Positions 3,032 to 49,721 of a DNA stretch of 64,000 nucleotides are shown one piece after another. Position 1 is the stretch's first letter. Every line of letters begins with the position of its first letter. The notes beneath the pieces were generated by a model that was not told the DNA's origin, ran no database searches, and saw only the letters and a list, made by a program, of their open reading frames with translations. The translations under genes and the position numbers were made by a program. Source of the DNA: an uncultured delta proteobacterium (lineage in GTDB: Bacteria; Desulfobacterota; Binatia; UBA9968). The stretch lies in assembly GCA_963737905.1 (NCBI GenBank), contig CAVTUQ010000012.1, positions 128,001 to 192,000 of the forward strand, in the 5' to 3' direction.

Positions 3032-4375
3032 ATGATCTTCCGCAAGCAAACGATTGTTGTTTTTGCACTGTTTTCCGCGCTGGGGCTGAGCTTGCTTGCA
3101 ACTCCGAGTCCGGCGGATCTGGAACAGTATGTCCGGAAGCCCGAAGCCGAGTTCGGTTGGAAACTAAAAGAAAAAATCGAGCGCGAGCAGTCTGGAGACC
3201 GGATCTACGATCTCCATTTCGTGTCACAGACCTGGCAGGGCAATACCTGGCAGCATCAATTGCAAGTCTATCAGCCGCGAAACGTTGCGCCGAACTCGAC
3301 CCTGTTTCTATGGGTCACGGGCGGTTCGGCCAGACCGGCCTATGTCTCCTTGGGTTTGGAGCTGGCCCGGAAAATTAACGCTCCGGTGGCCATTCTTTAC
3401 CACATTCCGAATCAGCCGCTGCTGGAAAGTAAACTGAGTGAAGACGATCTGATCGCCGAAACGTTTGTCCGTTATCTCAATACCAAAGATGAAAACTGGC
3501 CGCTGCTCTTGCCGATGGTCAAAAGTGTCGTCAAAGCGATGGATGTTTTGCAGGCGTTTGGCAAACGAGAATGGGACAGTCCGGTAAATAGCTTCATCGT
3601 ATCCGGGGCGTCGAAGCGCGGCTGGACGACCTGGCTCACCGCGGCCATCGACCCGCGAGTTCGTGCCATCGCTCCGGTGGTCATTGATACGCTCAATATT
3701 CGCGCGCAGATGCCGCGACAGCTCAAAGCCTTCGGCGCCTATAGTGGCCCGCTCACGCCTTATACCAGTCGTGGATTGGTGCCGATACCGGAAACACCCG
3801 AAGGCCAGCGCCTCTTGAGCATGGTCGATCCCTGGGAGTACCGCGAAAGGCTGGCCTTGCCCAAGTTGATCGTTAACGGCACTAACGATTTCTACTGGGC
3901 CACAGACGCGCTCAATCTGTATTGGAACGAGCTCACAGGAAAAAAGTGGGTAGTTTACGTGCCGAACGCCGGACATGATTTGAAGCGGCGGGACAAGCCT
4001 GAACCGGACCAGTTGACGGATCTCGTCAATAGTCTCGCGGCTTTCTCCCGTTATCAAATAAGCGGCCGGTCCATGCCGAACCTGGCGTGGAAGCATGAAA
4101 CCATAAACGGCAAACTCCGTCTGACGATCGACGCGACCCCGGAACCCACGGGCGCAAGGCTCTGGGTGGCAGAGACACGAACTCAAGATTTTCGCACGGC
4201 TAAATGGCGAGAGCAGGCCGTGACTCTTTCGAACGGTGTAGTTATCGGCGAAGTGACTCCACCGGAGAAAGGCCATATCGCGTTCTACGGCGAGCTGGAC
4301 TACGAAATCGACGGCCTGAAATATCACCTCTCTACTCAGGTGCGGATGACGGAATGCAATGTGGAGCAATGTTAA
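3032..4375 (+). CDS. PqaA family (PhoPQ-activated) alpha/beta hydrolase-like protein
   Basis: Signal peptide plus SQTWQG, PNQPL, GASKRGWTTW and VPNAGH motifs. Confidence 0.85.
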   Translation: MIFRKQTIVVFALFSALGLSLLATPSPADLEQYVRKPEAEFGWKLKEKIEREQSGDRIYDLHFVSQTWQGNTWQHQLQVYQPRNVAPNSTLFLWVTGGSARPAYVSLGLELARKINAPVAILYHIPNQPLLESKLSEDDLIAETFVRYLNTKDENWPLLLPMVKSVVKAMDVLQAFGKREWDSPVNSFIVSGASKRGWTTWLTAAIDPRVRAIAPVVIDTLNIRAQMPRQLKAFGAYSGPLTPYTSRGLVPIPETPEGQRLLSMVDPWEYRERLALPKLIVNGTNDFYWATDALNLYWNELTGKKWVVYVPNAGHDLKRRDKPEPDQLTDLVNSLAAFSRYQISGRSMPNLAWKHETINGKLRLTIDATPEPTGARLWVAETRTQDFRTAKWREQAVTLSNGVVIGEVTPPEKGHIAFYGELDYEIDGLKYHLSTQVRMTECNVEQC

Positions 4376-8182: not shown

Positions 8183-9228
8183 GCTACGACGTCGTCGAAT
8201 GGGGTAAGCCGCTCGAGAAGACTGAGCGCGAAACACCGGCGCCGAAGGGCAGCGAGGTGCTGCTCAAACTCAAGTATTGTGGCGTGTGCCACAGCGACGT
8301 GCATATCCGGGACGGCTATTTCGACCTGGGCGGCAGCAAACGACTGCCCATGAGCGAGCGCGGCATGACCTTACCCGCAACTTTGGGGCATGAGCCCTAC
8401 GGCAAGGTTGTCGCTGCGGGACCCGAGGCCGGTGATGTTGCGATCGGAGCAGATCGACTCGTCTACCCATGGACAGGCTGCGGGGCGTGCGCGCGCTGCC
8501 GCGAGGGATTGGATAACTTCTGCATGGCGCCGCACTGCATGGGTCTTCAGTGTCCGGGCGGATATGCGGATCATCTCCTGGTGCCTCACCCGCGCTATCT
8601 TGTCGATAGTAGCGGTATTGATCCGGCTTGGGCGGCGACGCTATCTTGTTCGGGGCTGGCCGCTTATTCCGCCGTGTCGAAGTTGAATCCCCTCCCGCGG
8701 CAAGAATGGGTGATCGTGACAGGCGCGGGCGGACTCGGACTGTCCGTCATCTCTATTTTGCGGGCGCTGTCCCACGAGTGCATTATTGCGGTGGATATCG
8801 ATAACGCCAAGCTAAATGCGGCAAAAAAGGTAGGCGCTGCTTTAGTTGTGAATAGCCGCGATCAAGATGTCGCAGAGAAAATAAGACAGATCGCCGGCGG
8901 ACTCTTATACGGGGCGGTGGATTTGGTGGGCACCGCCGAGACGGCCAGTTTTTCTCTCGACGTTCTGCGCAAGGGCGGCCGGTTGATCCTTGTCGGCTTG
9001 TACGGCGGTGTGATTCCGCTGTCGCTGGTGAGGACGATTCAACGCGCGATCACGATCCAGGGCTCCCACCTCGGTAGTGTCCATGAGTTGAAGCAGGTCC
9101 TTGCACTCGCGCGCGAGGGCAAACTCCAGCCGATCCCAATCCGGAGGCGGCCGCTGTCGGAAGTCAGCCGCACTCTCGATGAGCTGAAAGCGGGAGCTGT
9201 TGTCGGCCGGGTAGTGGTTGAGATGTAG
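8176..9228 (+). CDS. zinc-dependent alcohol dehydrogenase
   Basis: CGVCHSD, GHE, CGACARC..C and GAGGLG motifs. Confidence 0.95.
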   Translation: MLSYDVVEWGKPLEKTERETPAPKGSEVLLKLKYCGVCHSDVHIRDGYFDLGGSKRLPMSERGMTLPATLGHEPYGKVVAAGPEAGDVAIGADRLVYPWTGCGACARCREGLDNFCMAPHCMGLQCPGGYADHLLVPHPRYLVDSSGIDPAWAATLSCSGLAAYSAVSKLNPLPRQEWVIVTGAGGLGLSVISILRALSHECIIAVDIDNAKLNAAKKVGAALVVNSRDQDVAEKIRQIAGGLLYGAVDLVGTAETASFSLDVLRKGGRLILVGLYGGVIPLSLVRTIQRAITIQGSHLGSVHELKQVLALAREGKLQPIPIRRRPLSEVSRTLDELKAGAVVGRVVVEM

Positions 9229-9267
9229 GGAGGCCGAGGCTATTCCCTATTCACCGGCAACGACTAA

Positions 9268-9417
9268 ACGACGACGGCGGGAATATGGATGACCGCGGCG
9301 GTTGGAATTGCCGCTGGTTTGGGACGCTTGGGGCTCGCCTTGGTGAGTACGATTCTGACATGGATAACACTCTCTCTCATGGGAAAAATAGAGACTTGGA
9401 TGAATGAAAAACAATGA
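9268..9417 (+). pseudogene. MgtC/SapB family C-terminal fragment
   Basis: Hand translation TTTAGIWMTAAVGIAAGLGRLGLALVSTILTWITL resembles the MgtC TTAA.IW.TAA.G motif. A stop lies immediately upstream. Confidence 0.6.
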
Positions 9418-24634: not shown

Positions 24635-25363
24635 ATGTCTCTCGAGGCCATTGAGCAAAAGAAAGACCTCATCGAAAGTCGGGCTCGCATACGCGAGTTC
24701 GTTTTCGGCATTCAAGACGGTTTGATGAGCACCGTGGGGCTGCTGACCGGAGTCCAGGGTGCCACCGAAAGCACTGCAGTTGTCATTATCACGGGCTTCA
24801 CGGCGATGTTTTCGGGGGCGATTTCCATGGCGGCCGGATCTTACCTTTCATCGAGCGCGGAGAAAGATATCTTCGACAAGGAACTGCGCGATGCCGAAGT
24901 GCTGGCGGAAAGGGAACCCTATTTGGCTGCCGAGGGATTGCTGAAGGCTTTGAATCAGGAAGGTTTGGCGCGGGAGCAGAGTTATAACGTCGTCAAGGTT
25001 CTCTTGCGCCAGCAGCACGCATTTCTAAGGACTTTTCAGGAAAAAGTCTTCGGCCTCGGATCGGCGGAAATTAACCGGCCTCTCCAAGGGGCTTTGGTCA
25101 TGGCAGCTTCGTTCGTGATCGGCGCTTCCGTGCCGATCGTGCCTTATCTGCTGGTCGCAGGCCGAACCGCTTTGATTCTTTCGATTGTGCTCTCGGGTTT
25201 CGTCCTCTTTGGGGTGGGGTTCGTCAAAGGCCGCTTGGCGGCGAAGTCGCCGGCGCGGTCCGGCGCCCAGTTCTTCGCGATTGCCGTGGGCGCTGCGCTC
25301 CTGGGATATCTGATCGGCTTGGTCGTCCAACATTTCTTTCCTGACATTTCGATTCCGGCGTGA
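24635..25363 (+). CDS. VIT1/CCC1 family Fe/Mn transporter
   Basis: VFGIQDGL, GAISMAAGSYLS and multiple TM helices. Confidence 0.9.
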   Translation: MSLEAIEQKKDLIESRARIREFVFGIQDGLMSTVGLLTGVQGATESTAVVIITGFTAMFSGAISMAAGSYLSSSAEKDIFDKELRDAEVLAEREPYLAAEGLLKALNQEGLAREQSYNVVKVLLRQQHAFLRTFQEKVFGLGSAEINRPLQGALVMAASFVIGASVPIVPYLLVAGRTALILSIVLSGFVLFGVGFVKGRLAAKSPARSGAQFFAIAVGAALLGYLIGLVVQHFFPDISIPA

Positions 25364-25384
25364 CGGCGACTGGTTTTTTTCCTC

Positions 25385-25613
25385 TTAGTCGATCAGACTT
25401 CTAAGCAACGTTAGATTTTCCCGATCCTCGGCTAGGTCCGGCCCTTTAGGCGTTTCGAGGCACATGGGGAGACCCCAGAAGCGTTTGTCGTTCACGAGAA
25501 ACCGGAACGCGTCGACGCCGATGTGGCCTTTCCCGATGTGCTCATGACGGTCTACGCGAGAATTGAACTCCTTCTTCGAATCGTTCAGATGGAACCCACA
25601 AAGCGTTCGATCC
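25385..25613 (-). pseudogene. duplicated 3' fragment of endonuclease IV (nfo)
   Basis: GFHLNDSKKEFNSRVDRHEHIGKGHIG...CLETPKGPDL...LLRSLID* matches the C-terminus of the gene at 29191-30066. Confidence 0.92.
25518..25564 (+). repeat. 47-bp perfect direct repeat, copy 1 (copy 2 at 29327-29373)
   Basis: CCGATGTGGCCTTTCCCGATGTGCTCATGACGGTCTACGCGAGAATT is identical at both sites. Confidence 0.95.
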
Positions 25614-25643
25614 TGACAAAACGGGCTCACGATAGGGGGAACA

Positions 25644-28475
25644 ATGGTTGTCACCCAAGAACTTTTCGCTGCATACCTGAACTGCCCGACAAAGGCATAT
25701 CTCATGAGCTCAGCAATCCCAACGGAGCAGACTAAATTCAGGAGGTGGAAAGCGGATATTCAAAATAGGCTACGACAACAAGGAGTAGAGTTACTTCGAA
25801 AACAAAGCCGCCTCGAAATCAAAGAAAGTCCTACGGCAGACGATCTTTCAGCGAAAGAGTCTGCTCTTTACGTAAATTGCTCTATTGGATTTGAAGAGCT
25901 GAGATCGGTGATTGACGCTGTTGAAAAAATAGACTTACCAGGCAGAAAGAGTCAATTGCTTCCCTGTCGATGTCAATTAGACAAACGCGCGGAGAGACAT
26001 GAAAAGCTCCTATTGGCTTATGATGCCCTATGTCTACAAGCCTTCACAGGAGTACCTATCCGTGCGGGCAAGTTGGTCGACGGGATTAGTAAACGTGCAA
26101 AGAAAGTTCAACTAAATAGCCAGCTCAAAGCGGTGCAGGACCATGTTCGACGACTGACAGAGCTGCTTGGACAAGCAAAGGAACCGCCGCTGATCCTGAA
26201 CAGACATTGCGTCGAATGTGAATTCCGAGCGCGGTGTCGTGAGAAGGCTGCGGAGACGGACGATTTGAGCCTCCTTTCCAAAATGAGCCTTAAAGAGCGA
26301 CAAAAGTTACAAGGCAAAGGAATCTTCACAGTCCAGCAACTTTCCTACACGTTTAGGCCAAGGAGACGACGCAAAAGCCCCCGTTCAAATGCAGACAATT
26401 TCTCCTATGCCCTAAGAGCACTGGCGATTCGAGAAAATAAAATCCATGTCGCCGGAACGCCCACTTTTACGATTCAAGGCGATGACTGCTTTTTGGACGT
26501 GGAGGGCATTCCCGATTATGGATTCTATTATCTCGCCGGGCTACGGTTTCGTCTCAACGGCCAGCCAATCCAACATTCATTTTGGGCGGGCGACCGTTGC
26601 GACGAGGAAACTATGTGGAACGACCTAGTCACGAACTTACGTGCGAGTGGGTTTCGCCGAATTATTCATTTCGGAAACTTCGAAAAGGAGTTTCTGATAG
26701 CCATGACCAAGCGTTATTGTAAGTCAAAGGAACAATCGGAATATGTTGAAAGTTTGGTCCAGCAGACGGTTAACCTTTTGTCGGTAATCTACAGCCGAAT
26801 CTATTTTCCGACGTCTTCGAATAGCCTAAAAGATATTGCTCGCTACCTGGGACACAGATGGCCGGATGAAATTGGAAGCGGCTATGAAGCATTGCTCGCC
26901 CGTCATTACTGGGAAGCCTCAAGAGAGCTGAGCGTCAAGGAAGCCCTCCTGAGTTATAACATCAGCGATTGCGAAGCTCTCCATTTGGTTGCGGACTGCG
27001 TCTCTAAAATGTGTGGTCAATTATCAACCGCGGGACCGAATGACGATTCTAAATTTGTCGATACCAATAAATTGAGGGGATGGGGACCGTTCAAGTTTGG
27101 ACAGCTGAATTGTGCGATACCAGACTTTGAATACATCAATCGCGCCTCTTACTGGGACTATCAGCGCGAGCGAATCGTTTTTCGGTCGCGACGCTTACGC
27201 AAGCGGATTCGTATGCACACCTCTAGTAGACGGATAAAATACCGGGCAAATAAGGCAATCGCTCATCGACGAACTATTGCTTGTCCCTACTGTAAGTCGC
27301 GAGAGATTTATAAGTGGGGACCGAGAAATAAGACGGTCTATGATCTCAAGTTTTCTCCAGCCGGCGTAAAGCGTTGGGTCGTAAATTATCAATTTGATCG
27401 GCACAAATGCTGGCAATGCAGGAAAACTTTTATGCCTCCAAGGAAACCTTGGACGCGAAGCAAATACGGAGATGGTTTGATACGATACTTAGTTTTTCTC
27501 ACGGTTGACCTGCAAATTTCACAAAGAGCCGCAAAAAAGTTAATAAATCAGTTCTTTGGTTTGGACCTATCAGGGGAATCTGCCGGGAGGTTTAAAAAGA
27601 CTGCCGCCGCCTTTTATAAAGTAACTTACAACAAAATATTGCAAAATATAGTCAAGAGTCCCTTGGCCCATGTTGATGAAACGAAGGTTAGTCTCAATGG
27701 TCGAAGTGCTTATGTCTGGGTCTTAGCGAATCACGAAGATGTAGCTTACTTTGTTTCAGAGAGCCGCGAGGGCGCAAAGGTTCAAGATATCCTGAATAAA
27801 TTCAAGGGTATCTTGGTTTCTGACTTTTACAGTCTTTACGACTCTTTCGAATGTCCACAGCAAAAATGCCTCATTCACTTGCTGCGGGATTTAAACGATG
27901 ATCTCTTGCGTGAACCATTCAATGAAGAACTTAAGTCGGTAGTCAACGGTTTTGCGTCTTTGGTTAAACCGATCGTTGAAACCGTGGATCGATATGGACT
28001 CAAGTGTCGTTTCATGAAAAAACACAAACGGTCAGTGGGCAGGTTTTACCGTTGGCTGACAAGGACCAATTTTGAGACGGAAGTGGGCGTCGGCTATAAA
28101 AAACGATTTGAGAAAAATAGACAGAAACTTTTTACTTTCTTGGAATACGATGATGTCCCATGGAACAACAACGCGGCGGAGCATGCCATTAAAGCCTTCG
28201 CGACGCTCCGACGCGTGTTTGGAGGTAGTAGCACGGAACGTGGCATCCAAGATTATCTTGTTCTGCTCAGCGTGTGTGAGACATGTCGTTATCGAGGAAT
28301 AAAGTTTTGGGACTTTTTGTGTTCTGGTTACAAAGACGTGGACGCCTATGTCAAAAGTCAACGGCTTCATAGACGCCGGGTTACCAAGACAAGTATGCTG
28401 AAATCCAGAAACGCAATTATCTCGCAAAGCGATGGCAATGTATGCCAAGTTGGGGAGGCTTCTGAGCAGTATTAG
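25644..28475 (+). mobile_element. IS66-family DDE transposase fused to N-terminal TM0106 (Cas4/RecB-like + RNase H-like) domains
   Basis: YLNCPTK...HCVECEFRARC (Cas4-like Cys set); FLDVEG, IHFGNFE, SLKDIA.YLG, YNISDC (RNase H/DnaQ-like); CPYC..CWQC zinc ribbon; HVDET, LVSDFY, QKCLIHLLR, NNAAEHAIK (IS66 DDE). AT-richer than the flanks. Confidence 0.88.
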
Positions 28476-28594
28476 GATTCCCGATCTTCCGCCGGACCAT
28501 GCGCTGTTTCGAGGCGCATCCCGATGCCGATGTGGTGATGGAAAGCTGCTTCTGGTATGCTTTTGCTGCTGACGAGAGGGCGAAAAGTCTGTTT

Positions 28595-28822
28595 ATGAAT
28601 ATGCCTAGCCATGAAGAATTATATGATCGCTTCGTAAAAGGCCTGGAGTCTAAACACAGAGGAGCCTTTGCTGCCGTTCGCCCGGACGGAAAAGTTATTG
28701 TTGACAAGGACGATGTCAAAGTCGTGGACCGAGCGCTTAAGCAATTTGGCCCCGGTAATTTCGTGTTGTTAAAGGTTGGCAGTAGGGGAGTGGGGAAATG
28801 GCGCAGTCAACGACGGTTGTGA
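28595..28822 (+). CDS. small DUF5678-like protein
   Basis: LESKHRGAFAAVRPDGKVIV; overlaps the downstream protease gene. Confidence 0.6.
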   Translation: MNMPSHEELYDRFVKGLESKHRGAFAAVRPDGKVIVDKDDVKVVDRALKQFGPGNFVLLKVGSRGVGKWRSQRRL

Positions 28823-29163
28823 CGCCCGCATATCCGTATGTCGAGGTCGAGTTTGCCGTCGGCGCTTTTCGTTCTTCAACCGTTCTCGCCTATGTCGATA
28901 CAGGCTTTGACGGTTATCTGATTATTCCCAATACACAAACATCGCTTCTTGGTCCGCCACAATTCTTTGCGCCCTGGGAGCTTGGAGATGGGTCGGTCGT
29001 GCAGGCGCAGGAATACCGCGGTGATATCCTGATCTCCGGATTGAGCATAAGCATTCCCGCCCGCATTACACTAATAGGGGAAGAATACCTGTTGGGTCGT
29101 GGCGTTGTAGACCACGTGCGTATGACGTTTGATCATGGCCAGCGGCTGTTGTTGGAAGCGTGA
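28798..29163 (+). CDS. retropepsin-like (clan AA) aspartic protease
   Basis: AYVDTGFDGYL catalytic motif, LGDGS flap, LLGRG. Confidence 0.85.
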   Translation: MAQSTTVVTPAYPYVEVEFAVGAFRSSTVLAYVDTGFDGYLIIPNTQTSLLGPPQFFAPWELGDGSVVQAQEYRGDILISGLSISIPARITLIGEEYLLGRGVVDHVRMTFDHGQRLLLEA

Positions 29164-29190
29164 AGCCCCTCCCCTTGGCTCACTGTTTCT

Positions 29191-30066
29191 CTAGTCCTGA
29201 ATCAGGCTCCTCAGCAGCGTTAAGTTTTCTTTATCTTCTTTCAGGTCCGGGCCCTTCGGCGTCTCCAAGCACATGGGTAATCCCCAAAAGCGCTGGTCGT
29301 TAAGCAGTAGACGGAAGGCTTCGACACCGATGTGGCCTTTCCCGATGTGCTCATGACGGTCTACGCGAGAATTAAATTCCTTCTTTGAGTCATTCAAATG
29401 AAAAGCCGCTAGGCGGTCAATGCCGATCTCTTCATCGAAATCCGTGAACGTTCGCTCGTAACCTTCCTTTGTCCGAATGTCATACCCTGCGGCGAAGGCA
29501 TGCTCGGTGTCGAAGCAGACTCTGAGCCGATCGCTTTCTTTGGTTGCGTCAAACATTCTAGCGATCTGTTCGAAGCGGTAGCCGAGATTGGAGCCCTGGC
29601 CGGCCGTGATCTCGAGTGTGACCTTCACATTATAGCCGGGGCAGGCCTTGTGGACCTCGTCCAGTGAATGAGCAATGGTCTTTATACCTTCGTCTTCGCC
29701 GGCGCCCACGTGGGAGCCAGGATGAGCGATCAAATTCGACACGCCCAGGATTTCGCACCGTTCCAACTCGTCGATGAAGGCGGCTACCGAACGCTTTCGC
29801 AAAGAACCATCGGGCGAACCCAAATTGAGCAGATAGGAATCATGGGCAATCACGGTGGTGATTCCGGTGGCTTTCCGATTCAAATCAAACAGCTCGATTT
29901 CTTCCTTTGTGCAAGGCTTGGCCGCCCATTGGCGCGACGACTTCGTGAAGATCTGAATCGCGTCGCAATCTACAGTCTTACCCAGGAGCAGGGATTTATC
30001 GACGCCTCCCGCGATGGACATATGGGCGCCCAGGAGCGGGCGGGGCGGTTTCTCTTTCTGTTTCAT
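29191..30066 (-). CDS. nfo: endonuclease IV (AP endonuclease)
   Basis: LGAHMSIAGG, QIF, HDSYLLNL, HPGSH, EITAGQG, DTEH, HLNDSK and DRHEHIG. Confidence 0.97.
   Translation of the reverse strand: MKQKEKPPRPLLGAHMSIAGGVDKSLLLGKTVDCDAIQIFTKSSRQWAAKPCTKEEIELFDLNRKATGITTVIAHDSYLLNLGSPDGSLRKRSVAAFIDELERCEILGVSNLIAHPGSHVGAGEDEGIKTIAHSLDEVHKACPGYNVKVTLEITAGQGSNLGYRFEQIARMFDATKESDRLRVCFDTEHAFAAGYDIRTKEGYERTFTDFDEEIGIDRLAAFHLNDSKKEFNSRVDRHEHIGKGHIGVEAFRLLLNDQRFWGLPMCLETPKGPDLKEDKENLTLLRSLIQD
29327..29373 (+). repeat. 47-bp perfect direct repeat, copy 2
   Basis: Identical to 25518-25564. Confidence 0.95.
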
Positions 30067-30072
30067 AACATT

Positions 30073-30167
30073 TTGAACGTCTTGAACTTTTTGAACGGTT
30101 TGAACCATTGCTATATTCCGCCCGCGTTCAAACCGTTTAAGCCGTTCAAAGCGTTCAAGTCGTTCAT
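30073..30167. repeat. 9-bp-period tandem repeats arranged as a palindrome
   Basis: TTGAAC at 30073, 30082, 30091, 30100. GTTCAA-like at 30126, 30135, 30144, 30153, 30162. Confidence 0.85.
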
Positions 30168-31774
30168 CCAGTAAAGTGTCTCTTTTCTACCAGCGGTAGC
30201 GAAATACTGCCGGCGCTTAGCAACTTGTCGTGAAACTCACGGAGATTGAAGCGCGATTCGAGGCGGATCTGCTCCCGGTCCCGCAACCGATTGATGATCG
30301 ACCAACCCAGGGCATAGCCCATCGGCCCGGAGGGCGATTGGCTGTACCAGTTCAAATCTGCGCAGGCTTGAGCGCGCGGGAAATGGAGTTCTCGGACCAT
30401 CAACTCCGCGGCCTCGTCATAGGTCATCCGGCCGGTCTGTGTTTTGACGTCGATGATGATGCGCAGCGCGCGCCAAAGCCGATCTTTGAGCATGACAAAC
30501 CGGTGCTCCTTGGTTTTTAGAAAACCTTGCTCCTGCATAAGCTGCTCACAATAGAGTGCCCAGCCTTCGTAGAACACAGAGGACTCGTTCATCAGCCGCG
30601 GCAAGGTGGAGGCTGCGGCGATCGAGTTGGCAACCGAAAACTGCAGGTGATGGCCGGGATAGCTTTCGTGGACCGAAGTATTCTCCAACCCTACCCAGTT
30701 GTGCTCCCTGAGCAAATCATCATCCGTTACCGGTGTAACATAGTAGTAGCCGACCTGATCGGGATCTTTCGGCGAGGGCGATAAATAAGCGGCGAAGGGA
30801 ATCTCATGGCGGCGAAACTCCGGTGTGTGGACGACGTGCAGCTCTTCTTTCGGCGGAAAAGAGACCAGATCCTTTTCTCTGACAAACTCGCGCGCGGATT
30901 CCATCGCTTTCTGGTAGGCGGAAAGGATTTGATCGATGGGCGGATGGTTGTCCTGGATCTTACGGGCGACCTCTTCGATGTTCTTCCCGGGCGCCAGTTC
31001 ATCCGCGAGAGCTGTGAGTTCTCGCTTCGTCTTGGCAAAAAGCTCTTCACCCAGAGCCAGGAGGCTCTGCGCATCATGATTCAGAAAATGTTTTTTCTTT
31101 AGCAGGAGATTGTAATGTTCCTCGCCGACCGCATAGACGCCTTGGCTCCGCGGCAAAAGCTCGTGCTCGAGAAAGTTCGCGTAGCGATTAATGGCGTGTT
31201 TTGCAGTATCCACCGCCGAGCGAAGCGCTACGGTGTCCCTAACTCCACTTTGAACTTTCGGATGGTCCGGCAGGCTATCGAGAAAGCTCACCCCGCCCTT
31301 GGCGCTCTCGATGGCCATCTCTGTCCAAAGGCGTGGTGGATTAGCATCGGGGCGGCTGAGATTAGCGATGCCTTGCTGGATCACAGCGGGCGTCCGGTTC
31401 AGCCGGTTCAATAGATTTCCAGCCAGATCGTTGGTTGAGCGCACCGTGAGAATATAGATTGCGTCCACTGGCAGATAAGTGTCGGGCCACTTCAGGCGGT
31501 AATCTTCTTTTGTGTGTTCATAGCGTTGAATGGTTAGACGACCCTCGAGCAGGGCGTAATCGATGACCTGATCTCTGTCGAGCTCTCTGACGCGAATTTG
31601 CTGGAGCGTTTTTAACGACTCTTCTACGAAGATTTTTTCGGCTCGATAGATCTCCTCGGAGTAGTCATTGAGCAGGTGATCGTAGCCTTCGATGCCATAG
31701 TAGATAGCCTCGCTGGGATGAAGCTCAAAATATTTTTTAAAGTAGTCAGTGCAGAAATCGGTGAAAGAAGACAT
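30164..31774 (-). CDS. DUF885 family protein
   Basis: HESYPGHHLQ, FYEGWALYCE, RALRIIID and FHDKLL..GS motifs. Confidence 0.92.
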   Translation of the reverse strand: MSSFTDFCTDYFKKYFELHPSEAIYYGIEGYDHLLNDYSEEIYRAEKIFVEESLKTLQQIRVRELDRDQVIDYALLEGRLTIQRYEHTKEDYRLKWPDTYLPVDAIYILTVRSTNDLAGNLLNRLNRTPAVIQQGIANLSRPDANPPRLWTEMAIESAKGGVSFLDSLPDHPKVQSGVRDTVALRSAVDTAKHAINRYANFLEHELLPRSQGVYAVGEEHYNLLLKKKHFLNHDAQSLLALGEELFAKTKRELTALADELAPGKNIEEVARKIQDNHPPIDQILSAYQKAMESAREFVREKDLVSFPPKEELHVVHTPEFRRHEIPFAAYLSPSPKDPDQVGYYYVTPVTDDDLLREHNWVGLENTSVHESYPGHHLQFSVANSIAAASTLPRLMNESSVFYEGWALYCEQLMQEQGFLKTKEHRFVMLKDRLWRALRIIIDVKTQTGRMTYDEAAELMVRELHFPRAQACADLNWYSQSPSGPMGYALGWSIINRLRDREQIRLESRFNLREFHDKLLSAGSISLPLVEKRHFTG

Positions 31775-49644: not shown

Positions 49645-49721
49645 GGTCGCATAGCTCAGCTGGTTAGAGCGCTCGCCTCACATGCGAGAGGTCGTAGGTT
49701 CGAGTCCTACTGCGACCACCA
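49645..49721 (+). tRNA. tRNA-Val (anticodon CAC)
   Basis: GGTCGCA/TGCGACC acceptor stem, D-arm, CTCGC-CTCACAT-GCGAG anticodon arm, GGTTCGAGTCC T-arm, encoded CCA. Confidence 0.96.

Follow-up and report, generated by a model that had tools for sequence, protein, structure and literature searches.

What is a transposase of the IS66 insertion sequence (IS) family doing at the end of a protein that begins like Cas4, and can the gene that encodes it move? The question is raised by an open reading frame (ORF; P0001) of 943 amino acids (aa) at positions 25644 to 28475 of a 64,000-nucleotide stretch from an uncultured delta proteobacterium (Desulfobacterota; Binatia; UBA9968; assembly GCA_963737905.1, contig CAVTUQ010000012.1, positions 128,001 to 192,000). 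This whole stretch is called the window hereafter, and other loci and genomes are denoted by our own L and G numbers, the source genome being G000. We report that the fusion gene belongs to a widespread family whose closely related copies lie in unrelated contexts and share little more than the ORF itself. We give an even chance to its being an intact representative of a family, large and so far uncharacterised, of selfish elements that consist of one gene and derive from IS66. On this reading, the transposase of the family would have had its usual N-terminus replaced by a module of the TM0106 type. The protein is laid out as follows.

25644 to 28475, plus strand: ORF of the fusion protein (P0001, 943 aa), an open frame with an ATG start and matches in Pfam and NCBIfam
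25644 to 26255, plus strand: Cas4/RecB-like domain of the PD-(D/E)XK fold (aa 1-204), with C14, C189, C192 and C198; ExK and QxxxY positions not conserved
26256 to 26486, plus strand: conserved basic linker LSYTFRPRRR, with S234, R238, R240 and R241 invariant; low-confidence model
26487 to 26996, plus strand: RNase_H_2 / DEDDy-type 3'-5' exonuclease domain (aa 282-451; predicted), with D285, E287, E347, Y438 and D442
27252 to 27428, plus strand: zinc ribbon (aa 537-595), with C547, C550, C589 and C592 invariant
27531 to 28250, plus strand: IS66-type DDE domain with a helical insertion (aa 630-869), with D678, D727 and E846 invariant

Pfam recognised three parts of the protein above its cut-offs, namely Cas_Cas4 at aa 87-198 (29.5 bits; cut-off 22.7), RNase_H_2 (PF13482) at aa 282-451 (47.3 bits; cut-off 22) and DDE_Tnp_IS66 (PF03050) at aa 630-869 (107.6 bits; cut-off 23.1). 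Among the NCBIfam models, TIGR03491 ('TM0106 family RecB-like putative nuclease') covered aa 4-451 over model positions 2-460 of 462 (175.3 bits; cut-off 97.45), NF033517 ('IS66 family transposase') matched aa 537-893 with 186 bits, just over its cut-off of 180, and TIGR00372, the Cas4 equivalog, reached 29.3, under its cut-off of 65.

Residue conservation was read from an alignment of 72 family members. In the Cas4-like domain, every member has C14, C189 and C192, and at least 90% have C198; in the exonuclease domain, D285 and E287 (DVE) as well as Y438 and D442 (YNISD) are invariant, and E347 (NFE) is again found in at least 90%. All four cysteines of the zinc ribbon are invariant, as are D678, D727 and E846, which, from knowledge of the IS66 family, we take to be the catalytic triad. 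Twenty members at 43-82% identity align collinearly along the entire fusion protein. With its acidic residues kept, the DEDDy-type domain is a predicted 3'-5' exonuclease. The original prediction, drawn from the letters of the window, had named the one-plus-three cysteine arrangement, the exonuclease motifs, the zinc ribbon and the DDE triad, all of which proved to be conserved; its parse of the domains, for which it had proposed a check by AlphaFold, was borne out by Pfam, NCBIfam and the matches of a structure model. A segment that it had described as helix-hairpin-helix-like (aa ~205-251) is conserved in sequence, but has a predicted local distance difference test score (pLDDT) below 50.

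That AlphaFold model, built on the 72 family members, has an overall pLDDT of 75.3 and a predicted template modelling (pTM) score of 0.46, with low confidence at residues 205-251, 505-531 and 910-943. Its best matches in the PDB were the transposase of ISCth4 (IS256 family), Cas4 within Cas4-Cas1-Cas2, Dna2 and Hermes; matches to family-B polymerases were weak (E ~1e-2). A sequence search for relatives of solved structure returned no match with the family profile and none with the N-terminal 210 aa.

The motifs of Cas4 are a D, ExK and QxxxY. Throughout the fusion family, P107-x-R109 stands at the place of ExK and K121-L-L-L-A-F/Y at that of QxxxY, and the motif II position holds a D only in the window's subclade and an H in most members; the upstream motifs (ExK and motif II) were placed by register, with no significant alignment behind the placement. 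A profile alignment with the genome's own canonical Cas4, weak in itself (E 8e-4, probability 25%), brings the three C-terminal cysteines into register and has a leucine where Cas4 has the Q. The degeneracy of ExK and QxxxY that had been noticed in the window is thus a property of the family. By these residues, the Cas4-like domain is a predicted nuclease-dead PD-(D/E)XK fold; since it lacks the catalytic residues, any resection would be left to the exonuclease domain.

The canonical Cas4 used in this comparison is encoded on contig C37 of G000 (L002, 1351-1848) and carries CDVVE, EYK and QLCAQ motifs together with the cysteine cluster. An open frame that comes after it is a suspected cas gene. 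Applied to the fusion protein, PADLOC gave generic Cas4 matches to aa 4-200 only and no known defence system. We also considered standalone relatives of the N-terminal part and rejected them: the short proteins concerned are truncated halves of the fusion family, with the same P-x-R and KLLLAF motifs, and are therefore uninformative on canonical TM0106 proteins.

The family is large. A protein search gave 1771 matches at E ≤ 1e-3 (8000 candidates scored); among the 120 best matches listed, PF03050 and PF13482 occur together in 119, all proteins of ~620-990 aa, and at least 574 of 599 candidate stretches (one genome per species) were confirmed as the collinear fusion. The best 80 stretches come from Binatia, Acidobacteriota, Planctomycetota, Verrucomicrobiota, several proteobacterial classes, Nitrospirota, Bacteroidota, KSB1 and Hydrogenedentota, and full-length copies reside on complete plasmids of two cultured cyanobacteria, Acaryochloris marina MBIC10699 and Calothrix sp. 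PCC 7716. In databases, members go by 'IS66 family transposase', 'TM0106 family RecB-like putative nuclease' or 'predicted RecB family nuclease'; each of the first two names, assigned by pipelines, conceals half of the protein. The guess that similar fusions would be found in databases was therefore right.

These data also bear on whether a TM0106 nuclease gene and an IS66 transposase gene were joined by faulty assembly or gene calling. G000 is a metagenome-assembled draft of 46 contigs (87% complete, 6.7% contaminated), which would leave room for such an error, but the same collinear protein recurs in hundreds of independent assemblies and on the two complete plasmids, its linker regions are conserved among members, and a 3874-bp contig from an independent soil run spans 25802-29412 of the window. 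An artefact, which the original prediction had named as a way in which it could fail, is thereby excluded, and we treat its probability as negligible.

For all its breadth, the distribution is patchy. In the window's order, the fusion gene occurs in 9 of 123 genomes and 7 of 27 genera, G000 counted; the other two genomes of the window's genus (G040 and G041) do not have it. Another order yielded 2 carriers among 201 genomes, including the centre genome G125 already known as a carrier, and a sample of the phylum 2 among 401, including G000, likewise known beforehand.

Does the gene move? The extent of a possible mobile unit is best estimated from a metagenome copy (L085/L107) with 93.2% DNA identity to the window, limited to one interval.

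25636 to 28424, plus strand: stretch shared with copy L085 at 93.2% nucleotide identity; best estimate of the mobile unit

The unit begins 8 nt ahead of the ATG and stops within the variable C-terminal tail, so that the last 17 codons and the stop of the window ORF are supplied by flanking DNA. Beside L085 lie an unrelated 251-aa ORF (no NCBIfam match; no Pfam scan made), a small helix-turn-helix (HTH) protein and a further unrelated ORF. As synonymous divergence (dS) between the window copy and L085 is ~0.18, homologous neutral flanks would still align, and the breakpoints are hence real.

Other copies tell the same story. Identity across roughly the ORF is 88-91% for L033, L038 and L041, whose metagenome-assembled genomes bear the labels Beta- and Gammaproteobacteria, and for L126, which belongs to G090, a genome of the same order as the window. 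Depending on the pair, the homologous stretch opens 0-77 bp upstream of the ATG (0-38 bp in all but one of the four), and in the three pairs uncut by a contig end it stops no more than ~40 bp from the end of the protein match. Homology is ORF-limited likewise for L075, L079, L083 and L096. Altogether, copies 87-93% identical occur in unrelated contexts and phyla with homology confined to about the ORF. L050 and a broken copy in G129 have a 3.1-kb unit in common (92% identity), on a contig other than that of L050's flanking gene. Further broken copies comprise L139, pieces in G083 and L125 with two stops, and fusion-gene fragments accompany the full-length gene in G126 and G355. Diverged members form head-to-tail pairs ~0.5-0.7 kb apart in L096 (1536-4277 and 5001-7733) and L060 (6001-8802 and 9485-11677); in L097 the second copy is partly deleted. 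The original prediction had allowed that homologs might turn out to be immobile single-copy genes: mostly single-copy they are, immobile they are not, given the copies in unrelated contexts.

The ratio of non-synonymous to synonymous differences per site (pN/pS) ranges from 0.16 to 0.57 per domain in four pairwise comparisons, which places all three main domains under purifying selection. GC content drops to 0.437 at 27001-28000, the lowest 1-kb value of the window, against 0.52-0.59 nearby, a foreign composition that, like the patchy presence, we count as a sign of mobility. In the genome of L008 (G353), a short canonical IS66-type transposase is present in 14 copies and the fusion gene in only two, diverged ones; this short transposase is an open frame of ~419-508 aa, 26-28% identical to aa 513-890 of the fusion protein. 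L087 and L031, with ends that overlap exactly over 56 and 44 bp, were considered as circular forms. We did not count them as evidence for circles, since an assembly-graph cycle also arises from identical flanking repeats or tandem copies. RNA-library contigs cover 25624-25930, 26723-26975 and 27497-27686, which does not in itself show transcription.

Canonical IS66 elements have terminal inverted repeats (TIRs) of ~15-30 bp, typically starting with GTAA, produce an 8-bp target-site duplication and carry the accessory genes tnpA and tnpB ahead of the transposase gene; members of the ISBst12 group are tnpC-only. To our knowledge, IS66 is among the least understood of the large IS families, with the roles of TnpA and TnpB unknown. 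At the window locus no tnpA- or tnpB-like neighbour is present, the flanking genes being a fragment of nfo and two small ORFs, and TnpB_IS66 (PF05717) has no match in the 87%-complete genome; the tnpA model had no separate search. Neither a comparison of the upstream with the downstream flank nor a repeat search revealed an inverted repeat joining the two ends of the gene in the window, and a repeat search found none at the ends of the two cyanobacterial plasmid copies. When flanks were compared by short-query BLAST at 80 loci and the window, inverted repeats with E below 0.01 were confined to L051 and L071, and were rejected as TIRs because they belong to a multi-copy 24-mer resembling repetitive extragenic palindromes (REPs). 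This 24-mer (GTAGCAGCCGA...GAGGCTC) has 8, 3, 3 and 2 copies in L051, L071, L072 and L084, all of Verrucomicrobiota; its copies cluster near the fusion genes in either orientation, some of them within the 5' part of the gene.

The absence of tnpA, tnpB and TIRs, predicted from the window, thus stands, and standard IS66 TIRs came to light neither there nor at the plasmid copies and the 80 loci. The end motif proposed at the same time did not fare so well: CTGACAAAAC (25613-25622), placed at the junction between the nfo fragment and the unit, has no partner by the other end, and its 3 matches in the window were equalled in 70 of 100 shuffles. Similarities of 9-15 nt seen by eye at the boundaries in three pairs were inconsistent and are not relied on. 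As candidates for empty sites we discarded G040 and G041, where the gene is absent but the locus rearranged instead of simply empty, and the relatives of G123 and G354, which are too divergent or rearranged; the flanks of L085, tried as a route to an empty site in G000, match only at scattered paralogous places.

Nor does the gene keep constant company. Among 12 tightly linked co-directional downstream ORFs, no conserved partner gene emerged apart from one pair of related loci, and neighbour orientation is unbiased (downstream 25 plus versus 28 minus; upstream 27 versus 28). Genes for tRNA within ~1.3 kb downstream were found at few of 60 loci only, promoter and terminator scans gave nothing better than shuffles, and no cas genes occur among neighbours within ~3 kb (no search for CRISPR arrays in the window was made). 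The unit is about the size of the ORF, without TIRs, accessory or conserved partner genes; it is normally single-copy and patchy, and has moved between phyla.

How did this copy come to lie where it does? Its immediate surroundings are dominated by nfo, the gene for endonuclease IV, pieces of which form direct repeats (DR1 to DR3).

24635 to 25363: VIT family gene, first in the local gene order
25391 to 25603, minus strand: DR1, endonuclease IV (nfo) fragment, aa 233-303, abutting the unit's left side; 79% nucleotide and 89% aa identity to the intact 3' end
28455 to 28530, minus strand: DR3, short nfo 3'-end remnant just past the unit, supplying the last ORF codons and stop; also in the transposase-less G040
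28499 to 29163, plus strand: two small overlapping ORFs of 107 aa and 121 aa, outside the unit
29191 to 30108, minus strand: intact deoxyribonuclease IV (nfo), TIGR00587 at 292 bits; its 3' end, 29201-29403, is DR2

The order along the window is therefore VIT-family gene, nfo fragment, unit, nfo 3' remnant, two small ORFs, intact nfo and a DUF885 gene. The nfo fragment differs from the intact nfo at 35.7 of 47.7 synonymous and 13.3 of 165.3 non-synonymous sites (pS 0.75, pN 0.08), contains no stop and is 91% identical to the 3' end of the intact nfo of a relative, L094. One contig from sequencing runs joins 25595 to 29432, that is, the nfo fragment to the nfo body, across 27 other letters, and another joins 25356 to 28492; at a likeness of at least 90%, we read both as alleles without the transposase. 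The synonymous bias of the differences, the 91% identity to L094 and the join in the soil contig point to a fragment derived from another lineage's working allele, not to a decayed fresh duplication, and the window copy probably arrived with the foreign nfo fragment attached.

In related loci this order recurs, with the small ORFs present or absent. An nfo fragment accompanies the transposase in L086, L087, L088, L089, L093 and L112, both repeat copies are present in L005 and L093, the transposase lies beside nfo in L091, L092 and L094, and in L095 and L099 the order differs, with the small ORFs preceding the nfo fragment. Along the gene, pS between the window and L086 forms a mosaic (0.20 in the N-terminal part versus 0.52 in the IS66 part), indicating frequent recombination among related genomes at the nfo locus. 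The window copy sits in a variable hotspot at the nfo 3' end.

The two small ORFs lie outside the unit, as L005, L091 and L093 lack them and G040 has them but no transposase. The 107-aa product belongs to no family and the 121-aa one weakly resembles the clan AA aspartic protease TIGR03698 (33.7 bits; cut-off 57); the pair at 28499-29163 may be a small addiction-type cassette. It sits between the nfo 3' remnant and nfo without a recombinase, as it does in G040, whereas G041 has the first ORF only. The VIT gene is 81% identical in aa to its G040 counterpart, compared with 90-95% for its neighbours TetR, AhpC and nfo, and 91-94% identical to copies in L086, L088 and L099; it may have been brought in jointly with the transposase and the nfo fragment.

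Long direct repeats around the gene are not peculiar to the window. When the two flanks were compared as nucleotides at 79 loci, 18 loci proved to have a direct repeat at E ≤ 1e-3, a count taken without a control; compared as proteins, flanking genes formed long imperfect direct repeats at 10 of 59 loci versus 2 of 174 shuffled pairs. Most loci have no long flanking repeat. The transposase is the only gene inside the repeats in the window, in L005 (115 bp at 90%) and in L050 (218 bp at 84%, the 3' end of a DUF3047 gene); the repeat-bounded segments of L042, L040, L008 and L055 hold other genes too. No integrase is encoded inside the repeat-bounded segments. In L005 and L050 the repeats differ mainly at synonymous sites (pN/pS 0.31 and 0.23). 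We take the association with repeats to be real; it would fit either recombination between diverged alleles or integration, in the manner of Campbell, of a circle carrying a piece of the target.

L042 has its repeat at a tRNA gene. An exact 25-bp repeat (3795-3819 and 9220-9244) of the 3' end of tRNA-Asn (9222-9297, minus strand) bounds an islet of 5.4 kb with a ParB-HTH protein, a Schlafen/AlbA_2-HATPase-winged HTH protein and the fusion gene, and without an integrase.

How does the fusion compare with known systems? With the IS66 family it shares aa 537-893, which exceed the cut-offs of the IS66 models, the zinc ribbon and the invariant D, D and E; unlike annotated IS66 transposases, to which it is only ~22-26% identical, it devotes its N-terminal 450 aa to a nuclease-like module, and unlike canonical elements it has no TIRs, tnpB or nearby accessory gene and remains at low copy number. 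The module matches the TM0106 family (TIGR03491; COG2251) over its full length (aa 4-451), with a DUF83/Cas4-like domain followed by a PF13482 exonuclease-like domain, but here it is joined to a transposase and its PD-(D/E)XK positions are not conserved. In sum, the gene is both IS66 and TM0106 by sequence, and lacks the structural hallmarks of a canonical IS66 element (TIRs and accessory genes) as well as the catalytic residues of Cas4.

Cas4 itself has the same fold and the same four-cysteine arrangement, and in Cas4-Cas1 fusions, as here by sequence, an end-handling domain is joined to an integrase-like enzyme. The fusion protein departs from Cas4 in falling under the TIGR00372 cut-off, in having lost ExK and QxxxY and in having no adjacent cas genes; the real Cas4 of the genome is the one on C37. 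The best structural match, ISCth4 (PDB 6XGX; E 6.6e-9, TM 0.44 on the target), is a copy-out-paste-in DDE transposase, only 14% identical in sequence, which acts on inverted-repeat ends and has no nuclease module.

Two further comparisons concern the setting. Islets that tyrosine integrases insert at the 3' ends of tRNA or protein genes have the same succession of gene fragment, insert and intact gene with imperfect direct repeats, a geometry shared by the window, L005, L050, L055 and L042, in the last at tRNA-Asn; unlike such islets, the segments with the fusion gene have no integrase, and repeats occur at a minority of loci. Free-standing homing endonuclease genes—selfish ORFs without ends of their own that are copied by repair into a cleaved site—are a model that would fit the ORF-sized unit and its recurrence at nfo in one clade.

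A full-text literature search, which did not extend to paper supplements or ISfinder, found no description of the fusion or its mobility, and a search for a tested function of the TM0106 family found no title or abstract on it. A table in a 2012 survey lists, without comment there, four 'transposase IS66' genes with pfam03050 and COG2251 in Candidatus Solibacter usitatus (PMC3469429). COG2251/PF13482 (family F.13) appears in Majorek et al. 2014 among the predicted 3'-5' exonucleases joined to DUF83 (PMC3985635). By term search, the Cas4 phylogenomics paper contains neither 'transposase' nor 'IS66' (PMC5704561).

How might a selfish element of this kind work? In the mechanism that we propose, the DDE domain would carry out strand cleavage and joining, with the zinc ribbon and the helical region recognising the extreme, asymmetric ends of the unit, which would lie largely within coding sequence. 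The fused TM0106-type module would, as the original prediction had plausibly suggested, take the place of TnpA and TnpB: its putative Fe-S domain could hold a DNA end or single strand as a clamp, and its exonuclease could cut back 3' ends or flaps of the donor or the target DNA, which might allow ends without inverted-repeat symmetry to be joined. Movement to new sites would be rare, and spread among related genomes would proceed mostly by homologous recombination of flanking genes.

Several observations weigh against a selfish element. There is no direct sign of transposition activity; 12 pairwise boundary comparisons disclosed neither a target-site duplication nor a common terminal motif, and no empty site at high identity was found. 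G000 has a single copy (a DNA search gave no second one, and the genome has only one PF03050 match), and of 10 other genomes, 9 have a single full-length fusion gene, interrupted in some by an in-frame stop, and G353 has two. In clade relatives the gene stays at the nfo locus and has diverged roughly in step with the genes beside it: in L005, aa identity is 69% for the transposase, 79% for nfo and 76% for DUF885. The ORF is intact at dS ~1.1; for a single-copy resident, a host-level function or repeated re-invasion would explain this no worse than a transposon. G040, of the same genus, has no transposase and reads VIT, a 395-bp REP-rich spacer, nfo remnant, small ORFs and nfo; G041 lacks still more. 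As the same structure exists there around small ORFs alone, the flanking repeats may be unrelated to the protein, and several repeat-bounded islets elsewhere carry other mobile genes (ParB-HTH, Schlafen/AlbA_2, IrrE-HTH, YhcG nuclease and an IS110 fragment). The domain roles, the Fe-S cluster, the exonuclease activity and the end binding, moreover, we infer from sequence. Single copies, an ORF kept intact by purifying selection at the same nfo locus and the missing transposon ends would all suit a domesticated or host-beneficial gene, its product a transposase-derived nuclease complex in DNA repair or defence that spreads passively in variable islands. Neighbours resembling defence or toxin-antitoxin genes are indeed frequent (a VapC pair in L147 and, in addition to the Schlafen/AlbA_2, ParB-HTH, IrrE-HTH and YhcG proteins just named, a Phd antitoxin). 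We nevertheless consider this explanation unlikely: PADLOC offered nothing beyond generic Cas4 matches, a conserved partner gene was not found, the homology of copies 87-93% identical ends at about the ORF and involves no larger transferred block, broken copies and head-to-tail pairs of diverged members occur, and the family is rare in the two genome samples, each of which included its known carrier.

Alternatively, the protein might be a passenger or relic that no longer moves DNA, or never moved its own gene, the gene being reshuffled through homologous recombination, the integration in Campbell's manner of circles with a piece of the target gene, or the action of other elements at integration hotspots. 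The excess of long imperfect repeats over shuffled pairs speaks for this, as do their mostly synonymous differences, which fit two functional alleles united by recombination, the near match of the window's nfo fragment to the intact gene of L094, the repeat structure of G040 around the small ORFs alone, and the mosaic pS, a sign of active recombination at the locus. We judge it quite unlikely all the same, as the catalytic residues of both the DDE and the exonuclease domain are invariant or nearly so and under purifying selection, and near-identical copies are spread across phyla and contexts; ORF-limited homology of this kind cannot come from flank-driven recombination. We are very doubtful of a bolder idea, in which the fusion would stand for a DDE class of its own, able to move without inverted-repeat ends and leaving behind direct repeats of target sequence, 25 to ~240 bp long. 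If it did, the exonuclease and Fe-S module would open or trim donor and target DNA, giving long staggered or homology-assisted joints at gene ends, and the fusion protein would be the only recombinase of the integrase-free islets at the 3' ends of tRNA and protein genes.

A widespread branch of IS66 in which accessory genes and inverted repeats are missing and a Cas4-like/exonuclease module has been added amounts to a natural experiment, pointing to end-processing as the step that needs help. It runs parallel to the Cas4-Cas1 and DnaQ-Cas2 fusions of CRISPR adaptation, and reconstitution in vitro would be simpler with a single protein.

Elsewhere in the window, a REP-like palindromic repeat of ~35-45 bp occupies 30062-30175 between nfo and DUF885 and has dozens of matches on both strands of G040 and G041; many metagenome contigs break within it, at 30072-30166. 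Similar palindromes of the CCCCCTTTGAAAAAAGGGGG type are present in the G040 spacer past the VIT gene. The sole Rfam match in the window is a tRNA gene at 49645-49718 on the plus strand.

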